A stretch of DNA of 64,000 nucleotides from an uncultured Armatimonadetes bacterium (lineage in GTDB: Bacteria > Armatimonadota > UBA5829 > DTJY01), in the NCBI GenBank assembly GCA_963717145.1, contig OY970325.1:1472001-1536000 (forward strand), read 5' to 3'. The translations under genes were made by a program, and so were the position numbers. Shown here in pieces: positions 4,047 to 13,871 of this stretch. How positions within the stretch are numbered: the stretch's first letter is position 1; every line of letters starts with the position of its first letter. Under the pieces are notes generated by a model, which was not told the DNA's origin, did not search any database, and was given only the letters and a program-made list of their open reading frames with translations.

Positions 4047-7000
4047 GTGGACATTCGCGTGCTCATCTTCAAGGAAGAAGACTTCCCATTCATCGATACC
4101 ACTTCAGTCGATACTCAGGAGATCGTGGACGCGCTCCCACCGGTCCAGGAGGTTCGCTCTGTCGGAGTTGCCGGCCTGAGGGAGCGGCTCCGTGCCGACT
4201 CGATCGATCTTTTCATAAACCCTTACGGCTCGGCATTCCCAAAGGATGCCTGGCCGGAGATACACGAGTACCTCGCCGGAGGTGGAAACCTGCTCAACCT
4301 CGGCGGCGCGCCGTTCAGCGTCCCGGTCCGACGTGACGGAAAGGACTGGCATCAGGAGATCCGTCAGACGCAGAATCACCGCGAGCTTGGGATCAACCAG
4401 GCGTACCCGGTCGAGACATCCGGCATCAAGCGGTATGACACCACGAGCACCGAGCCGCTGCTCTCGGGGTTGATCGAGGATTTCTCCTGCGACAAGGTGT
4501 TCGAACTGCAGGTGAGGTTCACCAGCGCAAACGATCATCCGAACGAGTTCGGCAGTTCGGGCGCACGGGAAGCGATCCTCCGTCCGCTGCTCTACGCGTA
4601 TGACTCCGATGGCCGACGACTTGCCGCACCGATCATCGCGATCGACCGCGTGCTCGGCCGGTTCGCCGGCGGACGATGGGTGCTCGCCAACTTCGAGTCC
4701 AAGGCGCTTCCGAGGAAAGAGGCGATAGGACGGCTGGCGGCATATGCGGCTCTCGGGGCGACCGACATGCAGATCAGGCCATCGTTCGCATCCTACAAGC
4801 CTGACGAGCGCGCCAGTCTGATCCTGCACGTCAATCGCCTGGGGACATCCGGTGATGGGCCGCTCAACTTGTTCTTGACGATCCGCAAGGAGAAGTCGAC
4901 TGTCAAGACCGAGAGCATCGATATCAGCGATTTCGCGTCTCCATACTACCTCGACATCCCGGTCACTCAGCCGCTGACTCCCGGCCTCTACTCGATCGAA
5001 GCCAGGCTCTCGACCGGCAACCCGCAACTGACTGACAAGTACGCCGACTACGCTTCCACCGGCTTCTGGTGCTATGACAAAGCGCTCGTCGGGATGACGC
5101 AGCCGCTCTCCGCAGGCAAGGACTACTTCCAACGCGAGAGCAAGCCGGTTGCCCTGATCGGCACGACTTACATGGCGTCGGATGTCCACCGTAAGTTCCT
5201 TTTCGAACCGAATCCCGCGGCGTGGGACCGTGACTTCGAGGAGATGCGGGCTGAAGGCATCAACATCGTCCGAACCGGCATCTGGACAGGGTTCCGGCAG
5301 ATCATGCTCGATCCCGGCGCTCCGAGCGAGGGGATAATGCGCGCGTTCGAGGCGTTCATGTTGACCGCCGCCCAGCACGATATGCCGGTGATCTTCACGT
5401 TCTTCGCATTCGCGCCGGAGATGTGGGAGGGCGCCAATATCTACCTCGATCCGAGGTGTCTCCAGGCGCAGAAGGAGTTCATCGCGGCCTTCAGCCGCAG
5501 GTTCGCCAAGTTCAACAACCTGATCTGGGACCTGATCAATGAGCCGTGCACCAAGCGTCCGAACCGGGACGCATTCGAGGAGGCCGCCTGGCGCGAGTGG
5601 ATCTCCGAGCGACACAATCTCGAAGAGAAGTGGAAGATGACCCCCCGGACCAGCAAGGCGCTCCCGGAACCGCAGGACTTCGATGATGCACAGATCTTCG
5701 AGAATGCGCATCCGGTCCGCAAGCTGGACTACATGCTCTTCTCGCAGGACGTCTTCAACCGCTGGGTCCGGGAAATGACCGCCGTCATCCGCCAGAACGG
5801 CAACCTGAAGCAGCTCATCACCGTCGGCCAGGAAGAGGGCGGGACCGGCGAGAGCCCGAATCCGCAGTTCCACTGGAAGGAGGTCGATTTCACCTGCAAC
5901 CATACCTGGTGGCTGATGGACGACCTGCTCTGGGACGGCCTCGTGACCAAGACGCCGGAGAAGCCGAACCTGATCGAAGAGACCGGTATCATGTTCGTCG
6001 AAAACCTCGACCGCTCCCACCGGCGCACGGAGATCGACTGCCGGAACCTGCTCGAGCGCAAGTTCGTGATGGCGTTTGCATCCGGCGGCGCAGGGGTCAT
6101 TCAGTGGATCTGGAACACGAACATCTTCATGGCCAGCGACAACGAGGTGGCGTGCGGCTTCCACCGGGCCGACCTGACCCGCAAGCCGCAACTGGAGTTC
6201 GTCAAGCCGATGTCGGCGTTCCTCAAGGAGGCCCGCTCGCACTTCATCGACCGCCGGCCGGAGGACGTATGCATGGTGATCCCCCACTCCGCCATGTTCT
6301 CCGTGCGCGACCCGGCGACTCCGGCCACAAAGGTCTGCACGCGCCTGATGAGCTACGATCTCGGCATCCCGATACGCGCGGTCGGGGAGTATACGCTGGA
6401 GAACCTCGGCAAGCCCAAACTGATCGTGCTTCCGTCGCCCAGGGTGTTGAGCCAAAGCGCGTGGGAGACGCTTCTGTGGGCGGTCGATGCAGGCTCGACG
6501 CTGCTCGTGACCGGGCCGATCGACTGGGATGAGTACTGGCGTCCGGTGGATCGGCTGGGGCAGTTCGAGATCGAAGCGGCCACCAGGCCGGTCACCCGCG
6601 AGGAGGAGGCAATCATCTTCGGCAGCGAGTATCGGGTGAGCTTCGGCGGCGACAAGATCGCACGGGTCGATAAGGCGGTCCTCGGAGGGCTCGGCGGCAC
6701 GGTTCGGACGGAGCAGATCGGCGCGGGGAAGCTTGTCTACTCGGCGCTCCCGGTCGAGCTGGCGGACAACATCGAGCCGGCGATCGCACTATACCAGTTT
6801 GCGCTGAAGCAGGCGGTGCTTCAGTCGCCATTCAGCATCGAGAAGCCCGAGCCCGGTGTGCTGATCCGGCCGCTGTTCTTCAAAGATGCGATCCTTTACT
6901 CGCTCGTCTCAGAGACCGACGTGGACAAGGAGCTTTCGTTCACCGACAACGCGACCGGCAAGGCACTCAAGGTGACGGTCCCCGCCCAGCGCGCGGTGAT

Positions 7001-7061
7001 GTTCCTCCTCGGCAGGGATGGGAAGGTCCTGGCGGAGTACGGGGGAGGTATGCATAGCTGA
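4047..7061 (+). CDS. Large clan GH-A glycoside hydrolase (GH5/GH42-like) with GATase-like trimerisation domains
   Basis: GINIVRTGIW, WDLINEP acid/base motif, LIEETG candidate nucleophile, C-terminal KLIVLPS...GSTLLVTG. Confidence 0.7.
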   Translation: MDIRVLIFKEEDFPFIDTTSVDTQEIVDALPPVQEVRSVGVAGLRERLRADSIDLFINPYGSAFPKDAWPEIHEYLAGGGNLLNLGGAPFSVPVRRDGKDWHQEIRQTQNHRELGINQAYPVETSGIKRYDTTSTEPLLSGLIEDFSCDKVFELQVRFTSANDHPNEFGSSGAREAILRPLLYAYDSDGRRLAAPIIAIDRVLGRFAGGRWVLANFESKALPRKEAIGRLAAYAALGATDMQIRPSFASYKPDERASLILHVNRLGTSGDGPLNLFLTIRKEKSTVKTESIDISDFASPYYLDIPVTQPLTPGLYSIEARLSTGNPQLTDKYADYASTGFWCYDKALVGMTQPLSAGKDYFQRESKPVALIGTTYMASDVHRKFLFEPNPAAWDRDFEEMRAEGINIVRTGIWTGFRQIMLDPGAPSEGIMRAFEAFMLTAAQHDMPVIFTFFAFAPEMWEGANIYLDPRCLQAQKEFIAAFSRRFAKFNNLIWDLINEPCTKRPNRDAFEEAAWREWISERHNLEEKWKMTPRTSKALPEPQDFDDAQIFENAHPVRKLDYMLFSQDVFNRWVREMTAVIRQNGNLKQLITVGQEEGGTGESPNPQFHWKEVDFTCNHTWWLMDDLLWDGLVTKTPEKPNLIEETGIMFVENLDRSHRRTEIDCRNLLERKFVMAFASGGAGVIQWIWNTNIFMASDNEVACGFHRADLTRKPQLEFVKPMSAFLKEARSHFIDRRPEDVCMVIPHSAMFSVRDPATPATKVCTRLMSYDLGIPIRAVGEYTLENLGKPKLIVLPSPRVLSQSAWETLLWAVDAGSTLLVTGPIDWDEYWRPVDRLGQFEIEAATRPVTREEEAIIFGSEYRVSFGGDKIARVDKAVLGGLGGTVRTEQIGAGKLVYSALPVELADNIEPAIALYQFALKQAVLQSPFSIEKPEPGVLIRPLFFKDAILYSLVSETDVDKELSFTDNATGKALKVTVPAQRAVMFLLGRDGKVLAEYGGGMHS

Positions 7062-8258: not shown

Positions 8259-9323
8259 ATGAAGGGGATTCGGATGTCCACTGTGAAATCCTATGCTCAA
8301 GCTGTCCTCGGTAAGCTGATCGAGCGCATCGGCATTCGGTCGGTCGCGTTCGAGGCGACACAGGAGTGCAACCAGGACTGCGTCTTCTGTTACAACGTCT
8401 GGAAGGCCGGCGCGTATCCGCATGGGCAAATGGATGCCGCCCGGTCGAAGGATCTTCTCGATCGCATCATCCGGGGATACCGCCCGCAGGTTCTCAGCTT
8501 CACCGGCGGAGAGCCGCTGCTTCGACCGGATATCGTCGAGCTGGTCCGACACGTCTCCCGGCGAGTCAGCACCAACCTCATCACCAATGGCACGCTCATG
8601 ACCGACGACTTGGCGAGGGAACTCGTTCAAGCGAAGGTGCGCACCTTCGAGTTCACGCTCCTCTCTGCTGATCGCGAGGTCCACAACTCGCTTGTCGGGC
8701 GCAAGTCGTTCGATGAGGTGATCGATGGGATAGCTTCAGTCCGCGCAGCGGGAGGCAATGTGGCCACCACCTTCGTCGCGATGAAGCAGAACATCGGTTC
8801 GTGGCAGGAAACCCTCCAACTGAACGCGGCGCTCGGCGTCTCGGGGATACTCTTCAACCGGTTCAACGTCGGCGGTTCGGGCATCGAGTGCGCGGACGAG
8901 TTGATGCCGTCGGTCGATCAGTTGAACGAGGCGCTCAGGCTCGCCGACGAGGGCGCAGAACGATTCGGAATCAGCATCTCGTGCGGAGTGCCGATTCCGC
9001 CGTGCGTGGTTGATTGGGATCGTTACCCGAACGTTCACTTCAGCCACTGCCCGGTCGGGACTCGCAAGGCATACCCAACGGTCGATCCGCTTGGGAATGT
9101 CCGTCCGTGCAACCACTCGCCCACGCTGCTCGGCAACCTATTCGACTCTGATATGCGGACGATCCTCCGCTCCCATGCCGCGGCCGGGTATGCATCCGGC
9201 ACGCCGGATGAGTGCCTCGACTGCGAACATGCGCCCGTCTGCCGTGGAGGATGCCGCGCGGCATCCGAAGTCTGTGGGGATGCGTGCGGCATCGATCCGT
9301 TCGTGGAGCTCTGCGGAGGATAA
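8259..9323 (+). CDS. Radical SAM protein with SPASM domain
   Basis: CNQDCVFC (CX3CX2C), FTGGEPLLR, ITNG; SPASM HCPVG...GNVRPC...CLDCEHAPVCRGGC...C. Confidence 0.92.
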   Translation: MKGIRMSTVKSYAQAVLGKLIERIGIRSVAFEATQECNQDCVFCYNVWKAGAYPHGQMDAARSKDLLDRIIRGYRPQVLSFTGGEPLLRPDIVELVRHVSRRVSTNLITNGTLMTDDLARELVQAKVRTFEFTLLSADREVHNSLVGRKSFDEVIDGIASVRAAGGNVATTFVAMKQNIGSWQETLQLNAALGVSGILFNRFNVGGSGIECADELMPSVDQLNEALRLADEGAERFGISISCGVPIPPCVVDWDRYPNVHFSHCPVGTRKAYPTVDPLGNVRPCNHSPTLLGNLFDSDMRTILRSHAAAGYASGTPDECLDCEHAPVCRGGCRAASEVCGDACGIDPFVELCGG

Positions 9324-9329
9324 CACGCC

Positions 9330-9575
9330 GTGAAGATCACTCGAGACACCGTAATCAAATGGATTCTTGGCCTGACCTTTCTCGCGATAGCAGCGGCACA
9401 AGGATGGCGGATGTGGCAGGAACTTCGTGAGAACTGCAGGATGTGCTACCTGCCGACCAATGAGCTACCGAAGCAGTCGATGGATCACTCGTCCTTGACC
9501 CGTAAGTACCATGACCTCGGGGTGATGAGCGACTCGGCGTTTGAGAAGATCTCGGAGATTCGGCATGGGGCGTAG
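9330..9575 (+). CDS. Small membrane protein with CY motif and SHOCT-like C-terminus
   Basis: One TM helix; C-terminus homologous to the next two ORFs; 6 nt after rSAM stop. Confidence 0.65.
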   Translation: MKITRDTVIKWILGLTFLAIAAAQGWRMWQELRENCRMCYLPTNELPKQSMDHSSLTRKYHDLGVMSDSAFEKISEIRHGA

Positions 9576-9620
9576 CTTTTCGGGCCGCTGAACCGTTGTG
9601 GTATGTGGGGGTAATAGACG

Positions 9621-10418
9621 ATGAGGAACCTGCACTTCGCGTATGTCGTCATAGCCGTTCTGCTGTTCGGGGCCGGGCTGTTCAAGGTCAAGGTCTGGGA
9701 ACGTTCACTGGGACTCCGACCGACGGAGTTCAGGCTAGAGATGTCGGAGAAGCACTTGTCGACGATCTCCGACCTGCTCCATGTATATCGAGTACGCACC
9801 GGCCGATACCCAACGAATGATGAGGGACTCCTTGCGGTGCCGGAGTTGGCGGCTCTCGTCGGCAGTTCAGGGGAGGTTCGTTCCCGGGACTATCGCTGGA
9901 GAATGAATGACGCCGGGATACTTTCTCCGTGGGGTGAGCCCTACATCTACGAGAATGAAACGCACGAGTCAGGGAACGCCATGTGGTTGGTGCGGGTGAA
10001 CGATGATGTCTGCGTCTGGTCACTGGCGGCAAAGAAGGCATACAGCCATTACTCGACGTGGTCATCCTGGCTGGGGCGAGCCAGGATTGCCCTTATGCTC
10101 GCAGCCATCCTCTTCTTCGCTGCTTTCATCCGAGGCGCCGTTCGAGCAGGCGCATCATCACCTGCCAGCAAGCTTCCCCGAACAGCCCTCCATCTACTCG
10201 GGGGCATTGGGCTCGGCGCGGTCGTGGCATTGTTTCTCCCCGTATTGATGGGTGTCACGACGTGCTACGTCACGAACTACGGGAACCGGTCTCGCACGCC
10301 GAAACTGACCAGGGAGTACATGGCCTTGATGACGGAGTACCGCGGGCGCGGCATCATCGGCGACTCGGCGTTCGAGAAGATCGAGGCGGCGATGAAGAAG
10401 AGCAGCGGCGAGGACTGA
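9621..10418 (+). CDS. Membrane protein with GspG/pseudopilin-like domain and CY-SHOCT-like tail
   Basis: YRVRTGRYPTNDEGL...SPWGEPYIY resembles the GspG core; about 3 TM helices; paralogous to the next ORF. Confidence 0.75.
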   Translation: MRNLHFAYVVIAVLLFGAGLFKVKVWERSLGLRPTEFRLEMSEKHLSTISDLLHVYRVRTGRYPTNDEGLLAVPELAALVGSSGEVRSRDYRWRMNDAGILSPWGEPYIYENETHESGNAMWLVRVNDDVCVWSLAAKKAYSHYSTWSSWLGRARIALMLAAILFFAAFIRGAVRAGASSPASKLPRTALHLLGGIGLGAVVALFLPVLMGVTTCYVTNYGNRSRTPKLTREYMALMTEYRGRGIIGDSAFEKIEAAMKKSSGED

Positions 10419-10430
10419 CAGGAGGGCGAC

Positions 10431-11282
10431 ATGCGCTACCTATGTCTGGCAATCGGGCTCATACTCCTGGCTTTGGGAATCTTCGGATTCGATGGCCGGG
10501 CCGGGCGGATACTGGACCCGTATCCTCCGCTGCGGGGTCTCGATTCGAGCAGACAGCAGATGGAGTGGGTCGCCCATTTCGTGAGGGAGTACCGGGTCAC
10601 CAATGGGCACTATCCGTCCAACGATGAAGGTCTGATCCTCATTACCGATACGATTCGGCGCGCACGTGCCGACGAGCACAGGTCAACCGATGGCGACACT
10701 CCCAAGTGGCCGGGGTTCCGGCCGGGCCAGTTCGACGGTATCTCCGTCACTTCGCTTTGGGACGAGCCCTTCATCTACGAGAACCGCCGAGGGATCCCGG
10801 CAGCCAAGTTCGCCGGATCGATGGTGGACGCGGACAAGGACCGAGAGTACTCGGTCCGGGTGGATGACGGCGTGTATATCTGGTGTCTCGCCGCCGCTAA
10901 GCTCGACGAGATACATCACTCCCGTCTGAGAAAGAGAACTCCGATCAGAGCATCGCTGATCGGCCTCGGTTCGTTGTTGGTCCTTGCCTACCTGATTCCC
11001 ACCGTCAGATCGGTCGATCGATCCCGACGGGGATTCCCTGCATACCGAGAACTGCTGGGGTCACTCGCAGGTGGCTTCGGTGTCGGCGCGCTCGTGTTCA
11101 TATTCCTCTCGCCCCTGTTCGCCCACGTCTCGTGCTACAAGATGGCGATCATGCACCCGCCGCGCCTGCGCGAGGGTTACGAGGAGTTGATGACCAGGTA
11201 CCGGGATCAGGGCGTGATCAGCGATGAGGCGTATGAGAAGCTGATCCTATCGGTCAGCAAGTATCGAAACCACCGCCGATAG
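10431..11282 (+). CDS. Membrane protein with GspG/pseudopilin-like domain and CY-SHOCT-like tail (paralog)
   Basis: YRVTNGHYPSNDEGL...LWDEPFIYEN; AGGAGG RBS; same architecture as 9621-10418. Confidence 0.75.
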   Translation: MRYLCLAIGLILLALGIFGFDGRAGRILDPYPPLRGLDSSRQQMEWVAHFVREYRVTNGHYPSNDEGLILITDTIRRARADEHRSTDGDTPKWPGFRPGQFDGISVTSLWDEPFIYENRRGIPAAKFAGSMVDADKDREYSVRVDDGVYIWCLAAAKLDEIHHSRLRKRTPIRASLIGLGSLLVLAYLIPTVRSVDRSRRGFPAYRELLGSLAGGFGVGALVFIFLSPLFAHVSCYKMAIMHPPRLREGYEELMTRYRDQGVISDEAYEKLILSVSKYRNHRR

Positions 11283-11362: not shown

Positions 11363-11893
11363 ATGAGACGAGTTGCCGTCATTGGATGCGGGGGAGCAGG
11401 TAAGTCGACGCTCGCGAGGGAGCTTGGCTCGATCCTTGGCATCGAGGTCATCCACCTGGATGCGCTGAACTGGAAGCCGGGATGGGTCGATACCCCGACA
11501 GAGGAGTTCCGGGCGGTGCAGGATGACCTCTTGAAGCGCGACTCCTGGATCATCGACGGCAACTACGGGGCCACGATGCCCGGCCGCCTCGCCGCGGCGG
11601 ATACCGTTGTGTTCCTGGACTACCCTACCCTCCTCTGCCTCTACCGCGCCATCAGGCGGATCATCCATTACTATGGAAGAACCAGGCCGGACATGGGTCC
11701 GGGTTGCCCTGAGAAGTTCGACCTGTCCTACGTCAACTGGATCCTCGGATTCCGCAGGCGGCCTCGGACATCGATTCTCAGACGGATCGAGGAGCACTGT
11801 GAGGGCAAGAGAGTGATCATCCTGCGCAGTCCGAAGGAGGCGGAGGCGTTCCTTCGAGAGCTGTCTCGGCACACCCCGACAGAGGCAGCGTAA
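11363..11893 (+). CDS. Adenylate-kinase-like P-loop protein (FlaR / DNA topology modulation family)
   Basis: GCGGAGKST, IHLD..WKPGW, WIIDGNY, RPDMGPGCPEK. Confidence 0.85.
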   Translation: MRRVAVIGCGGAGKSTLARELGSILGIEVIHLDALNWKPGWVDTPTEEFRAVQDDLLKRDSWIIDGNYGATMPGRLAAADTVVFLDYPTLLCLYRAIRRIIHYYGRTRPDMGPGCPEKFDLSYVNWILGFRRRPRTSILRRIEEHCEGKRVIILRSPKEAEAFLRELSRHTPTEAA

Positions 11894-13259
11894 CCGTGAA
11901 CTTCGTCCCGACGCCAACCGCGCTCTCCACATCGACCGTTCCTCCATGAGCGTCCGCTATCGTTCGCACTATGGAAAGCCCCAGTCCCGTTCCATCAAGT
12001 GTGAGTTTTCGGGCCTCGTCACTGCGGTAGAACTCCTCGAAGATGCGTTCCTGTTCCGCGTCGGGTATGCCGATGCCTGTGTCTGAGACCACTATTCGCA
12101 AGCGATCATCAGCTCCACCAACGCGCACGGTGACGGTCCCGCCCTGGTGCGAATACTTGATCGCATTGCTGACCAAGTTGGTGAGCAGTTGCTCCAGCCC
12201 CTCGGGGTCGCCGCAGATGACAGGAGTATCACCCCGTCTATCGGTAATCACGTTGATGGACCTGGCCCGGGCGTATTCCTCATGCAGGCCAACGACGGTT
12301 TCGATGAGCTGCTCGATGTGAATCTTCTTCCGTCTGGACGAGGGCAGCCTCTCCTCAGCGGCCGCGAGGATGAGAAGGTCGCCGACGACCGCAAGCAGTT
12401 CGCGCGTCCTGCGCTTGGCCCTCAGTATCATCTCGCGGGCATCCGGGGAAACCTCTCCGTGCAACCCATCGGCCACAACTCGCAGCAGGCTGTCCACCGC
12501 CGCCAGCGGAGAACGCAACTCGTGCGCCACCTTGCGCGTGTAGACGCGTTTCGCCTCATCAAGCCCGGCGAGATCATCGTAAGCGATCTGGAGCATATCC
12601 GCATTGTGGCTGACCTTCCGCAGCAGTGTAACCACCTGATCCTCCCGGAAGCGCAGACGGCTGGCGGTCGATGTCGCAAGGTAGACCGTCCCATAAAGCG
12701 CGGTCGCCATCACCCAGACAGCCCCGAGGACCGAGGTCCCGTTCACGTGCATTCCGGGGAAAACCATGCCAATCGGTGAGTCGTAGTGGGGAAGCAGTTC
12801 AAAGTACTCACCGATCGCCATGATCGCGAAGATGGCCAGGGCCACCGTGGCCTGTGCATAGGCGGCTCGCCGGGAGAGCAGAATGCTTGCGATCACCATG
12901 TGGAAAACGAAATAGAAGCCAAAGAGGTTCTCGATACCGCCTGAGAAGTGGATGAGCACTCCGAGGATGACCAGATCGCACACGATCTGGATGTTCGCCA
13001 GCCGTGAGGAGATCCTCTCGATATGCTCGACCCCGACGCGGTTGACCTGTCGCCAGTCCAGATAGGCCACCAGGTTGTAGCACGGGATGGCGCATGCGGT
13101 GACGTACAGGCTCAACCATGGAAGAGAGCTGTCGAATGCGAGGCGCGCGACCAATATCGTGGCGGCAACTCCGACAAACGCAAGCCAGCGGAGGCGGATG
13201 AGCCACCCGATCCGATCGATAAGCTCGAGTTGCGAGAGGCTGAGGTCGTCATTCTCCAT
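11817..13259 (-). CDS. Membrane sensor histidine kinase
   Basis: Multi-TM N-terminus; AHELRSPL H-box, NLVSNAIKY, DTGIGI, GTGLGL. Start estimated. Confidence 0.9.
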   Translation of the reverse strand: MENDDLSLSQLELIDRIGWLIRLRWLAFVGVAATILVARLAFDSSLPWLSLYVTACAIPCYNLVAYLDWRQVNRVGVEHIERISSRLANIQIVCDLVILGVLIHFSGGIENLFGFYFVFHMVIASILLSRRAAYAQATVALAIFAIMAIGEYFELLPHYDSPIGMVFPGMHVNGTSVLGAVWVMATALYGTVYLATSTASRLRFREDQVVTLLRKVSHNADMLQIAYDDLAGLDEAKRVYTRKVAHELRSPLAAVDSLLRVVADGLHGEVSPDAREMILRAKRRTRELLAVVGDLLILAAAEERLPSSRRKKIHIEQLIETVVGLHEEYARARSINVITDRRGDTPVICGDPEGLEQLLTNLVSNAIKYSHQGGTVTVRVGGADDRLRIVVSDTGIGIPDAEQERIFEEFYRSDEARKLTLDGTGLGLSIVRTIADAHGGTVDVESAVGVGTKFTVTLPLSGCAETALEGTPPPPSDCAG

Positions 13260-13272
13260 GACGAGTACGGCC

Positions 13273-13686
13273 CTATCTCTTACTTGCCAGGATAGCTTCG
13301 ATCTTCGCAGCAAGCCGATCCGGATCCAGAGGCTTCTCGAGGAATCCCTGGACAGGCAGGTAATCTCCACTTTCGTCGGAGTCGCCTTGCCCGAAGCGGA
13401 ACCCGGTGGTCTGATGGATCGAACTGGCGACGATGATCGGCACTTCTCGAAGCGACGTATCCGTGTGATGCCTGATCTTGGAGACCCACTGGAATCCTTC
13501 GATCCCCTGCGGCATCATGATGTCCAGGATGATCAGATCGGGCCTTGCTTCCTCCAATGCCTTGAACCCCGCGTCAGGACCCTCCGCTGTGACGACCTCG
13601 TAACCCCGGTCCTGGAGGAGAAGCTTCGTCGCGTCACGGTAGTCAGGATCGTCATCGACAATCAGGATCTTTGACTTGCTCGCCAT
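13273..13686 (-). CDS. Single-domain response regulator
   Basis: ILIVDDD, PDLIILDIMMP, LEKP. Confidence 0.9.
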   Translation of the reverse strand: MASKSKILIVDDDPDYRDATKLLLQDRGYEVVTAEGPDAGFKALEEARPDLIILDIMMPQGIEGFQWVSKIRHHTDTSLREVPIIVASSIHQTTGFRFGQGDSDESGDYLPVQGFLEKPLDPDRLAAKIEAILASKR

Positions 13687-13871
13687 ATGTCCTTCACCTC
13701 TCTGGAACAAGCTCTGTGGCGTGTTCCGTTGATCAGAAACTGACTTAAGTTAAGAGTATGTCAAAACCCGGCTTTTGTCAAATTCCCATGGCTTTCACTG
13801 CTATGCAGGAGCATCCTCACCGGCCAAACTTGACATCACCCAACCCGCGTGGTACCTTACCGGTGATAGAG

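Follow-up and report, generated by a model that had tools for sequence, protein, structure and literature searches.

What does a radical S-adenosylmethionine (SAM) enzyme act on when the three genes that follow it encode membrane proteins, each with a Cys-Tyr (CY) dipeptide behind a transmembrane (TM) helix? This question is raised by a four-gene locus at positions 8259 to 11282 of a 64,000-nucleotide (nt) stretch of contig OY970325.1 from an uncultured Armatimonadetes bacterium (the whole stretch is called the window here). We compared the enzyme and the three proteins, p81, p265 and p283, with their relatives in genomes and metagenomes. The computation showed that the enzyme clade and a module built around CY travel together across unrelated protein scaffolds and that CY is the sole invariant part of the module. 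Comparative genomics suggests that the enzyme is probably a motif-directed radical SAM/SPASM maturase of CY dipeptides in this module, which is carried in the window by p81, p265 and p283 and elsewhere by unrelated envelope proteins. Taken by itself, the proposal that these proteins are its substrates and CY the reaction site appears very likely from the same comparisons.

Organization of the locus

The original prediction placed a radical SAM/SPASM gene at short spacing ahead of open reading frames (ORFs) of 81, 265 and 283 aa. All four genes were found on the plus strand, with gaps of 6 nt (enzyme to p81), 45 nt (p81 to p265) and 12 nt (p265 to p283), and GGAGGA lies 9 nt upstream of the GTG start of p81. 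Because ORFs were called mechanically from the longest start, features at the N-termini and numbers of Cys residues outside the motif are approximations. The enzyme has no recognition element (RRE) of the kind found in maturases of peptides that are made by ribosomes and modified after translation (RiPPs). The features of the locus are as follows.

8259..9323, plus strand: radical SAM/SPASM enzyme, 354 aa, no RRE; PF04055 match and invariant Cys residues; read as a probable maturase
9330..9575, plus strand: p81, the smallest CY protein, 81 aa; one TM helix (residues 7-25), Cys39-Tyr40 (codons 9444-9449), helical tail
9621..10418, plus strand: p265, 265 aa; N-terminal TM helix, GspG-like domain, two TM helices, Cys215-Tyr216 (codons 10263-10268), helical tail
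10233-10406, plus strand: module of p265, matched by the module profile
10431..11282, plus strand: p283, 283 aa, paralogue of p265; Cys235-Tyr236 (codons 11133-11138), helical tail
11103-11276, plus strand: module of p283, matched by the module profile

Hydropathy analysis and alignment of the tails bore out the predicted succession of TM helix, CY and conserved helix in all three ORFs; the TM helix ahead of CY (TM3) spans residues 192-210 in p265 and 208-226 in p283. C, Y, G, D, E and K were invariant across the aligned tails. BLASTP identified p265 and p283 as paralogues (E 1e-25), and the p81 tail matched the p265 tail with E 5e-6. The one homologue found for p81 is also 81 aa long, is 69% identical and keeps TCY and the tail. 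As membrane proteins of 81 to 283 aa, the candidate substrates in the window are not short soluble leader-core RiPP precursors.

The enzyme is a SPASM-type radical SAM protein

Pfam analysis assigned the enzyme to the radical SAM superfamily (PF04055, residues 34-187, E 2.7e-25, 89.9 bits against a cut-off of 29.5). In an alignment of 26 homologues the CX3CX2C motif (C37, C41 and C44) and GGEP were invariant, as were C249, C264, G279, C284, C319, C322, C328 and C332. These give seven Cys residues in the spacing of the SPASM domain, which is defined by a C-terminal CX9-15GX4C ... CX2CX5CX3C pattern for two auxiliary clusters (PF13186 / TIGR04085). PF13186 is precomputed on many homologues; the Pfam scan did not report it for the window enzyme itself at E<=1. 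The predicted absence of an N-terminal RRE held up, and there is no room for one because only ~25 residues precede the core, which starts at about residue 27. The enzyme has no visible signal sequence.

Family models did not place the enzyme in a known functional class. All of its NCBIfam matches, among them the PqqE, MftC and NirJ/Ahb families, lie far under their cut-offs, the best being NirJ2 with 97 bits against 500. The PqqE model TIGR02109 scored 94.1 bits against an equivalog cut-off of 381.35, so that the enzyme does not count as a PqqE, and it does not count as an anaerobic sulfatase-maturating enzyme (anSME), no model of which is among its best 25 NCBIfam matches. Among solved structures the nearest relative is PqqE 6c8v, with an alignment that runs the full length (residues 20-345, E 1.3e-25); anSME, SkfB and CteB-like chains match the core only, with E about 1e-14 for anSME 4k36 and 4k37.

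A word-indexed search returned 557 proteins of the enzyme clade at E<=1e-30, with source names that include Planctomycetota, Armatimonadetes, Deltaproteobacteria, Myxococcales and Anaerolineales. The window genome (G000:C1) also holds at least three SPASM-type radical SAM paralogues of 29-30% identity, at 2954062-2954898, 4141573-4142580 and 2126435-2127325 (L005-L007). For none of these paralogues did the profile find a CY module elsewhere in the window genome.

Unrelated CY proteins adjoin the enzyme

We assembled 89 loci: 80 from metagenomes, fetched by radical SAM similarity alone (37-67% identity), 8 from genomes and that of the window itself. ORFs with a minimum length of 45 aa were clustered by all-against-all BLASTP, a procedure blind to the motif. 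Apart from the enzyme and its shadow frames, the three largest clusters (F5, F6 and F7) were mutually unrelated, and 77 of their 78 proteins contained CY.

F5, 24 loci: TM hairpin and helical repeats, TM-anchored; CY in 32 of 32 proteins
F6, 19 loci: lipoproteins with a twin-arginine translocation (Tat) signal, many with a twin-arginine signal and a lipobox-like Cys; CY in 26 of 26 proteins
F7, 17 loci: the window family, GspG-like membrane proteins; CY in 19 of 20 proteins

CY dipeptides numbered 55, 45 and 21 in F5, F6 and F7, against 1.7, 2.2 and 4.3 expected from composition, and other real neighbor clusters seldom carried one (for example 1/7, 0/6 and 1/6). When the three clusters were lined up on CY, the same pattern of CY and helix was common to all. 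A same-strand neighbor with a match to the module profile (described below) was present in 58 of the 89 loci, within 200 nt in 54 of these; the count is in part circular, as F5, F6 and F7 modules from these very loci went into the profile. Independent evidence comes from the clustering, which was blind to the motif, and from the controls in the window genome and the phylum sample. Inspection by eye found a different adjacent ORF with [T/M]-C-Y in 12 further loci, including a four-TM family, a 1305-aa HEAT-repeat protein and ORFs of 44-53 aa ending in W-L-C-[Y/F]-x-P. The remaining 19 loci had neither a profile match nor another CY ORF; 15 of them have less than 1 kb of sequence on at least one side. 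Of the 49 loci flanked by 1 kb or more on each side, 35 had a profile match, 10 had another adjacent CY or CF ORF and 4 had neither.

The original prediction took membrane proteins as the substrates. Comparative genomics supports it for the window trio, with CY as the likely modified site; as a statement of scope it was too narrow, since Tat lipoproteins and, at two loci, peptide-like ORFs of 44-53 aa also carry the site. The latter (L125:3322-3674 and L113:1661-1795) lie beside radical SAM relatives of 38-39% identity, have acidic helical N-terminal parts and end in W-L-C-Y-R-P-x-P or W-L-C-F-M-P-H-I; L125 has a second radical SAM gene upstream. By sequence they resemble classical RiPP precursors that would belong to the same enzyme clade.

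Fifty neighbor proteins from 15 loci were scanned for accessory functions. None matched the PqqD/RRE family, so the system is not classed as an RRE-dependent maturase, and no protease, exporter or other cofactor-pathway gene recurred across scaffolds. In one F6 subclade (L053:6030-10487 and L059:5669-10407) the enzyme is followed by MoxR (AAA_3), DUF58 and transglutaminase-like TgpA genes and preceded by a peptidase M1 gene; the MoxR/DUF58/TgpA arrangement was not seen with other scaffolds. HEAT-repeat proteins recur near the enzyme (L079:1102-5019, L114, L085 and L064), and the 1305-aa HEAT protein of L079, directly upstream of the enzyme, itself has a T-C-Y site.

On a quick tree of 85 enzymes the scaffold labels clustered, with 30 changes against a shuffled mean of 53, a value matched in 0 of 200 shuffles. 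F7 occurred in at least four places on this tree, and scaffolds therefore appear to have been exchanged or recruited repeatedly. The window enzyme grouped with other loci that have F7 downstream, next to the small-peptide loci (SH-like approximate likelihood ratio test [SH-aLRT] support, 86-92).

The CY module and its distribution

The module spans ~55 residues: [A/V]-[T/M]-C-Y-x-[P/M], then 10-20 residues, then a helix-turn-helix follower. The follower pattern, L..L...G-x-[IVL], begins 10-20 residues past CY. Among 105 distinct contexts, the residue before Cys was Thr in 72 and Met in 11, and the second residue after Tyr was Pro or Met in 72. A profile was built from 104 CY stretches. Searched against the 74,014 frames of at least 40 aa in the window genome, it matched p283 (E 3.5e-9) and p265 (E 9.3e-8) only, and the next match had E 0.17.

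Co-occurrence of a module hidden Markov model (HMM) with this radical SAM clade had been put forward as a check on the original idea, and it was observed in a sample of 401 genomes of the phylum. Radical SAM orthologues of at least 48% identity were present only in G000 (the window genome), G342 and G392, with a 34% relative in G338. Module matches covering the CY columns were found in exactly the same three genomes, with extra copies on other contigs of G342 and G392. The module alignment (A4) includes modules from G342 and G392, and matches at the radical SAM loci there arise by construction; the independent parts of this test are the absence elsewhere and the extra copies on other contigs. 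Module matches in three genomes that lack the enzyme (G148, G172 and G321) were rejected, as they cover helix columns only and have no CY. These weak matches are to an antiporter-like protein, a PilB/GspE-like ATPase and DnaJ. The N-terminal region of the ATPase (L132, G172:C7) is weakly follower-like (E 1.4e-4, helix columns only), a resemblance that could be chance and that is of interest given the GspG-like domain of the window carriers.

Against 1.84 billion representative proteins, the profile had 879 matches at E<=0.001, of which 333 reached E<=1e-10, and a single protein carried as many as nine copies. In the best 150 of the 879, CY was kept in 280 of the 282 module copies that cover the motif. 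Four proteins in the best 150 (P0226, P0259, P0273 and P0284; 842-1233 aa) match follower-like repeats only, in 8-11 stretches each, and have no CY; the follower hairpin may be an offshoot of a separate repeat family, or the source of one. CY sites without a follower also exist, just after F6 signal peptides, at C-termini and in short peptides, which means that recognition cannot depend on the follower alone.

The tail had been likened to a SHOCT domain. This assignment was dropped: PF09851 was found in none of the three window tails at E<=1 and in 2 of 87 modules at that threshold, the best with E 0.071. Neither Pfam nor NCBIfam has a model that covers the enzyme clade, and scans of 13 carrier proteins of other scaffolds returned none for the module or the F5 or F6 scaffolds.

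CY is conserved in the window family

A feature overlooked by the original prediction is the GspG-like N-terminal domain of p265 and p283, which lies between the N-terminal TM helix and the two further TM helices. PF08334 (T2SSG) matched p265 with 28.2 bits, above the cut-off of 21, and p283 with 20.4 bits, just under it, which places p265 at domain level; TIGR01710 gave 28 bits against a cut-off of 88.85, short of the GspG equivalog level. No prepilin-peptidase leader of the G-F-T-L-x-E type is visible at the N-terminus of p265 or p283. A Foldseek comparison of a p283 model with the PDB gave nothing at E<=0.001 and the pseudopilin EpsG only at E about 4. An ESM Atlas search with p283 returned T2SSG-type clusters only, at scores of 0.85-0.87, which serve as leads only.

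The F7 family is rare, with 16 proteins in a library of 5.8 billion, and all 16 homologues of p283 keep CY. C235 and Y236 were invariant in 17 of 17 aligned family sequences of 21-85% identity. Judged from these alignments, CY is conserved beyond chance. Loss of CY among homologues would have counted against the original prediction; it did not occur here or in the 280 of 282 module copies above.

A scan of one genome per species found eight family loci, seven in Planctomycetota and one in Lentisphaerae, with seven full-length members. Homologues were also expected to have a neighboring radical SAM gene, and most do: four of the seven (L012, L013, L016 and L017) have TCY and a radical SAM orthologue (40-43% identity) directly downstream, in a gene order opposite to that of the window, and one more (L018) has orthologues elsewhere in its genome. 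In L014 there is no Cys at the site, and the best radical SAM match in that genome is at paralogue level (28% identity, E 1.9e-27). The only other full-length family member in the 401 phylum genomes, L031 (G279), has CW at the site, and its genome gave no radical SAM match at E<=1e-35. Both members whose site is not CY thus come from genomes that yielded no orthologue of the enzyme. In the Lentisphaerae locus, the place directly after the CY gene that is taken elsewhere by the radical SAM gene holds a 415-aa ORF (L015:4035-5282) that reads as a putative transposase.

Predicted location and structure of the site

The original prediction did not consider on which side of the membrane CY lies. 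The loop between TM2 and TM3 of p283 has 5 K/R and 2 D/E and is cytoplasmic by positive-inside counting, which puts the GspG-like domain and the CY tail outside. The same counting predicts that the module is outside in F7, as are the bodies of F5 and the N-terminal CY of the four-TM family. F6 proteins have S-R-R-x-F-x-K type N-termini; L118 reaches 20.6 with TIGR01409 (cut-off, 16.7), and a loose RR pattern is present in 19 of the 26 proteins. Accordingly, the predicted orientation of CY modules is toward the periplasm. The SAM and reductant on which radical SAM chemistry depends are cytoplasmic. Modification probably precedes export, as with sulfatases, because the modules are predicted to be periplasmic, the enzyme has no signal sequence and its chemistry is cytoplasmic; Tat carriers would fit this order well.

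The AlphaFold2 (AF2) model of p283 has a mean predicted local distance difference test (pLDDT) score of 80.9. Residues 234-239 around CY fall below 50, and the tail forms a helix hairpin (246-259 and 265-281) with pLDDT about 95 as a block. The CY site is modeled as part of a disordered stretch beside a confident hairpin. When the complex of enzyme and module was predicted, one control scored nearly as high as the pair.

Proposed mechanism and alternative reactions

We propose that the substrate is docked through its follower hairpin or through the residues around CY. One or the other would take the place of an RRE, because the enzyme has none and no PqqD-like gene was found among the 50 neighbor proteins scanned. 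Modification would take place in the cytoplasm before the module is exported. The reaction would stay within the dipeptide, as expected because no other residue is conserved enough to serve as a cross-link partner. The chemistry we lean toward, with somewhat less than even confidence, is a thioether from the Cys sulfur to the neighboring Tyr, at its alpha or beta carbon or at the ring. The product would be a cross-linked site on the outer side of the inner membrane that may be redox- or metal-active. It is a doubtful further step to read the Cys-Tyr pair as becoming a new protein-derived cofactor, a cross-linked redox- or metal-active species installed in the cytoplasm and shown on the periplasmic face of the inner membrane by unrelated carriers (pseudopilin-like proteins, Tat lipoproteins and repeat proteins with up to nine copies).

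Two other reactions on the same substrates were weighed. The first is Tyr-centered chemistry of the PqqE/MftC kind, in which Tyr undergoes a C-C cross-link, side-chain excision or decarboxylation and Cys is an auxiliary ligand or later partner. The full-length alignment with PqqE (residues 20-345), the presence of PqqE, MftC and NirJ/Ahb among the NCBIfam matches and a Tyr conserved as strongly as Cys all favor it. We nevertheless consider it unlikely: no second conserved residue offers itself as a cross-link partner (Thr at position -1 is found in only 72 of 105 contexts), Phe replaces Tyr at one peptide-type locus, the PqqE model reaches 94 bits against 381, and PqqD had no match among the neighbors scanned.

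The second is anSME-like conversion of Cys to formylglycine, or to a thioaldehyde-derived carbonyl, before export, which would place a reactive aldehyde on the surface of the membrane. The enzyme resembles an anSME in size and layout (about 350 aa, a full SPASM domain, no RRE) and in its presumed action on a short motif in whole export-bound proteins, and anSME chains 4k36 and 4k37 are among its solved relatives, over the core. This reaction is quite unlikely, however, as the sulfatase motif C/S-x-P-x-R is absent and the site is T-C-Y, the anSME family is missing from the best 25 NCBIfam matches, PqqE aligns far better and over the full length, and formylglycine chemistry leaves a near-invariant Tyr (280 of 282 copies) unexplained.

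It is very unlikely that the CY proteins are not substrates at all and that the enzyme makes or alters a small-molecule cofactor, such as a tetrapyrrole as with NirJ/AhbD, which they bind through Cys/Tyr ligands or with which they are merely co-regulated: NirJ2 and AhbD are the top NCBIfam matches (E 1e-27) and Cys and Tyr are common metal or haem ligands, but those matches score about 95 bits against cut-offs of 500, a level generic to SPASM enzymes, the 50 neighbor proteins scanned include no other recurrent cofactor-pathway gene, the CY site is modeled in a disordered stretch and not in a pocket, and in some loci the site ends 44-53-aa peptide-like ORFs, as is typical of RiPP precursors.

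Several points weigh against the reading of the enzyme as a CY maturase. That reading rests on comparative genomics throughout, and the candidate reactions are not separable by sequence alone. Two family members keep CY and depart from the pairing: the genome of L018 (G003) has two radical SAM orthologues, neither beside a recognizable CY gene, and in L015 (G002, a Lentisphaerae metagenome-assembled genome of unknown completeness) the CY gene has a putative transposase gene downstream and no radical SAM orthologue was found. Four of the 49 well-flanked loci lack a CY neighbor, and one peptide-type locus has CF in place of CY. The circular elements in the count of 58 of 89 loci and in the phylum test have been stated above. 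p81 is weak on the module profile (8.1 bits), and some CY sites have no follower. The tree is a quick one, the careful tree search being unfinished. Lastly, a periplasmic site requires modification before membrane insertion, an added assumption for proteins that are inserted co-translationally.

Genes flanking the locus

The flanking genes appear unrelated to the system: an aldo/keto reductase gene upstream (minus strand) and, downstream, genes for a small AAA_18-like protein and a PilS-like histidine kinase (minus strand). The kinase has six TM helices and matches to PF25323, HisKA and HATPase_c. It lies on the opposite strand just downstream of the operon (window 11817-13710), together with an adjoining 145-aa ORF that is, by eye, a putative response regulator. 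Farther upstream, a 1004-aa ORF (window 4047-7061) has as its sole family match a weak one to GH5 cellulase (E 9e-7). Scans for promoters and terminators returned about as many hits as shuffled sequence (1 for an expected 1.4, and 3 for an expected 2.0).

Significance

To our knowledge, SPASM radical SAM enzymes are known mainly as RiPP maturases, and proven protein substrates are few: sulfatases, QhpC and CrpA (2026). The system described here appears, from sequence, to be new within the protein-modifying SPASM enzymes in its portable candidate substrate module and perhaps in its chemistry. The clade comprises several hundred enzymes, and the partner module occurs in at least 879 protein clusters. 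Its carriers are found in Planctomycetota and, by source names, in Armatimonadota, Myxococcales, Deltaproteobacteria and Anaerolineales. Because the module has one invariant dipeptide, the candidate reaction site is already pinpointed. This, a smallest natural substrate that would be 81 aa long and the option of a soluble fragment of ~58 aa open the chemistry to direct tests. Should the product prove to be a cross-link or a cofactor, it would be a new post-translational modification and a new example of modification followed by export, Tat substrates included, and it would give a function to three families of hypothetical proteins. If the cofactor reading is true, the CY module would be a portable, genetically encoded cofactor cassette for the cell envelope.

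Comparison with known systems

Two of the likenesses concern the carriers. The module shares with SHOCT (PF09851) a short helix-turn-helix tail and a G-[VI]-[IL] turn, and F6 modules match it below threshold (E 0.045, 14 bits; cut-off, 27). In their N-terminal domains p265 and p283 resemble GspG (PF08334, TIGR01710), whereas these two proteins show no prepilin cleavage motif and have two extra TM helices and a CY module.

The other likenesses concern the enzyme. The anSMEs (PDB 4k36-4k39) are likewise SPASM enzymes of ~350-390 aa without an RRE that modify Cys in a short motif of proteins exported later. The window system differs in its motif, T-C-Y and not C/S-x-P-x-R, in candidate substrates that are non-enzymatic membrane proteins and lipoproteins, and in a similarity confined to the core. 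PqqE, which acts on PqqA (6c8v; TIGR02109), is the closest solved relative and shares the SPASM domain and a reaction involving Tyr. PqqE forms a Glu-Tyr cross-link and requires the RRE protein PqqD and a peptide of 20-30 aa; the window system, in contrast, has candidate protein substrates with Cys-Tyr and no PqqD match among the 50 neighbor proteins. In the quinohemoprotein amine dehydrogenase system, the SPASM enzyme QhpD cross-links Cys residues of the small subunit QhpC in the cytoplasm before it reaches the periplasm. The bonds formed are Cys-to-Asp/Glu thioethers, the target is a dedicated enzyme subunit, and the system has a protease and an exporter of its own. The proposed window-type system is similar in outline and differs in that protease and exporter genes do not recur near the enzyme (50 neighbor proteins).

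A full-text literature search, covering papers outside subscription-only journals and supplements, found none on a Cys-Tyr-directed SPASM enzyme or a CY system. The nearest concept in print is CrpC of Methanococcus voltae, a SPASM enzyme that installs thioether (ranthionine) cross-links on the protein CrpA, a substrate found by gene adjacency (PMC13692751). A predicted RRE is described for CrpC, whose target is an archaeal protein rich in Cys (PMC13692751). By comparison, the window system is set apart by an enzyme without an RRE, by one Cys-Tyr per module and by bacterial envelope carriers.

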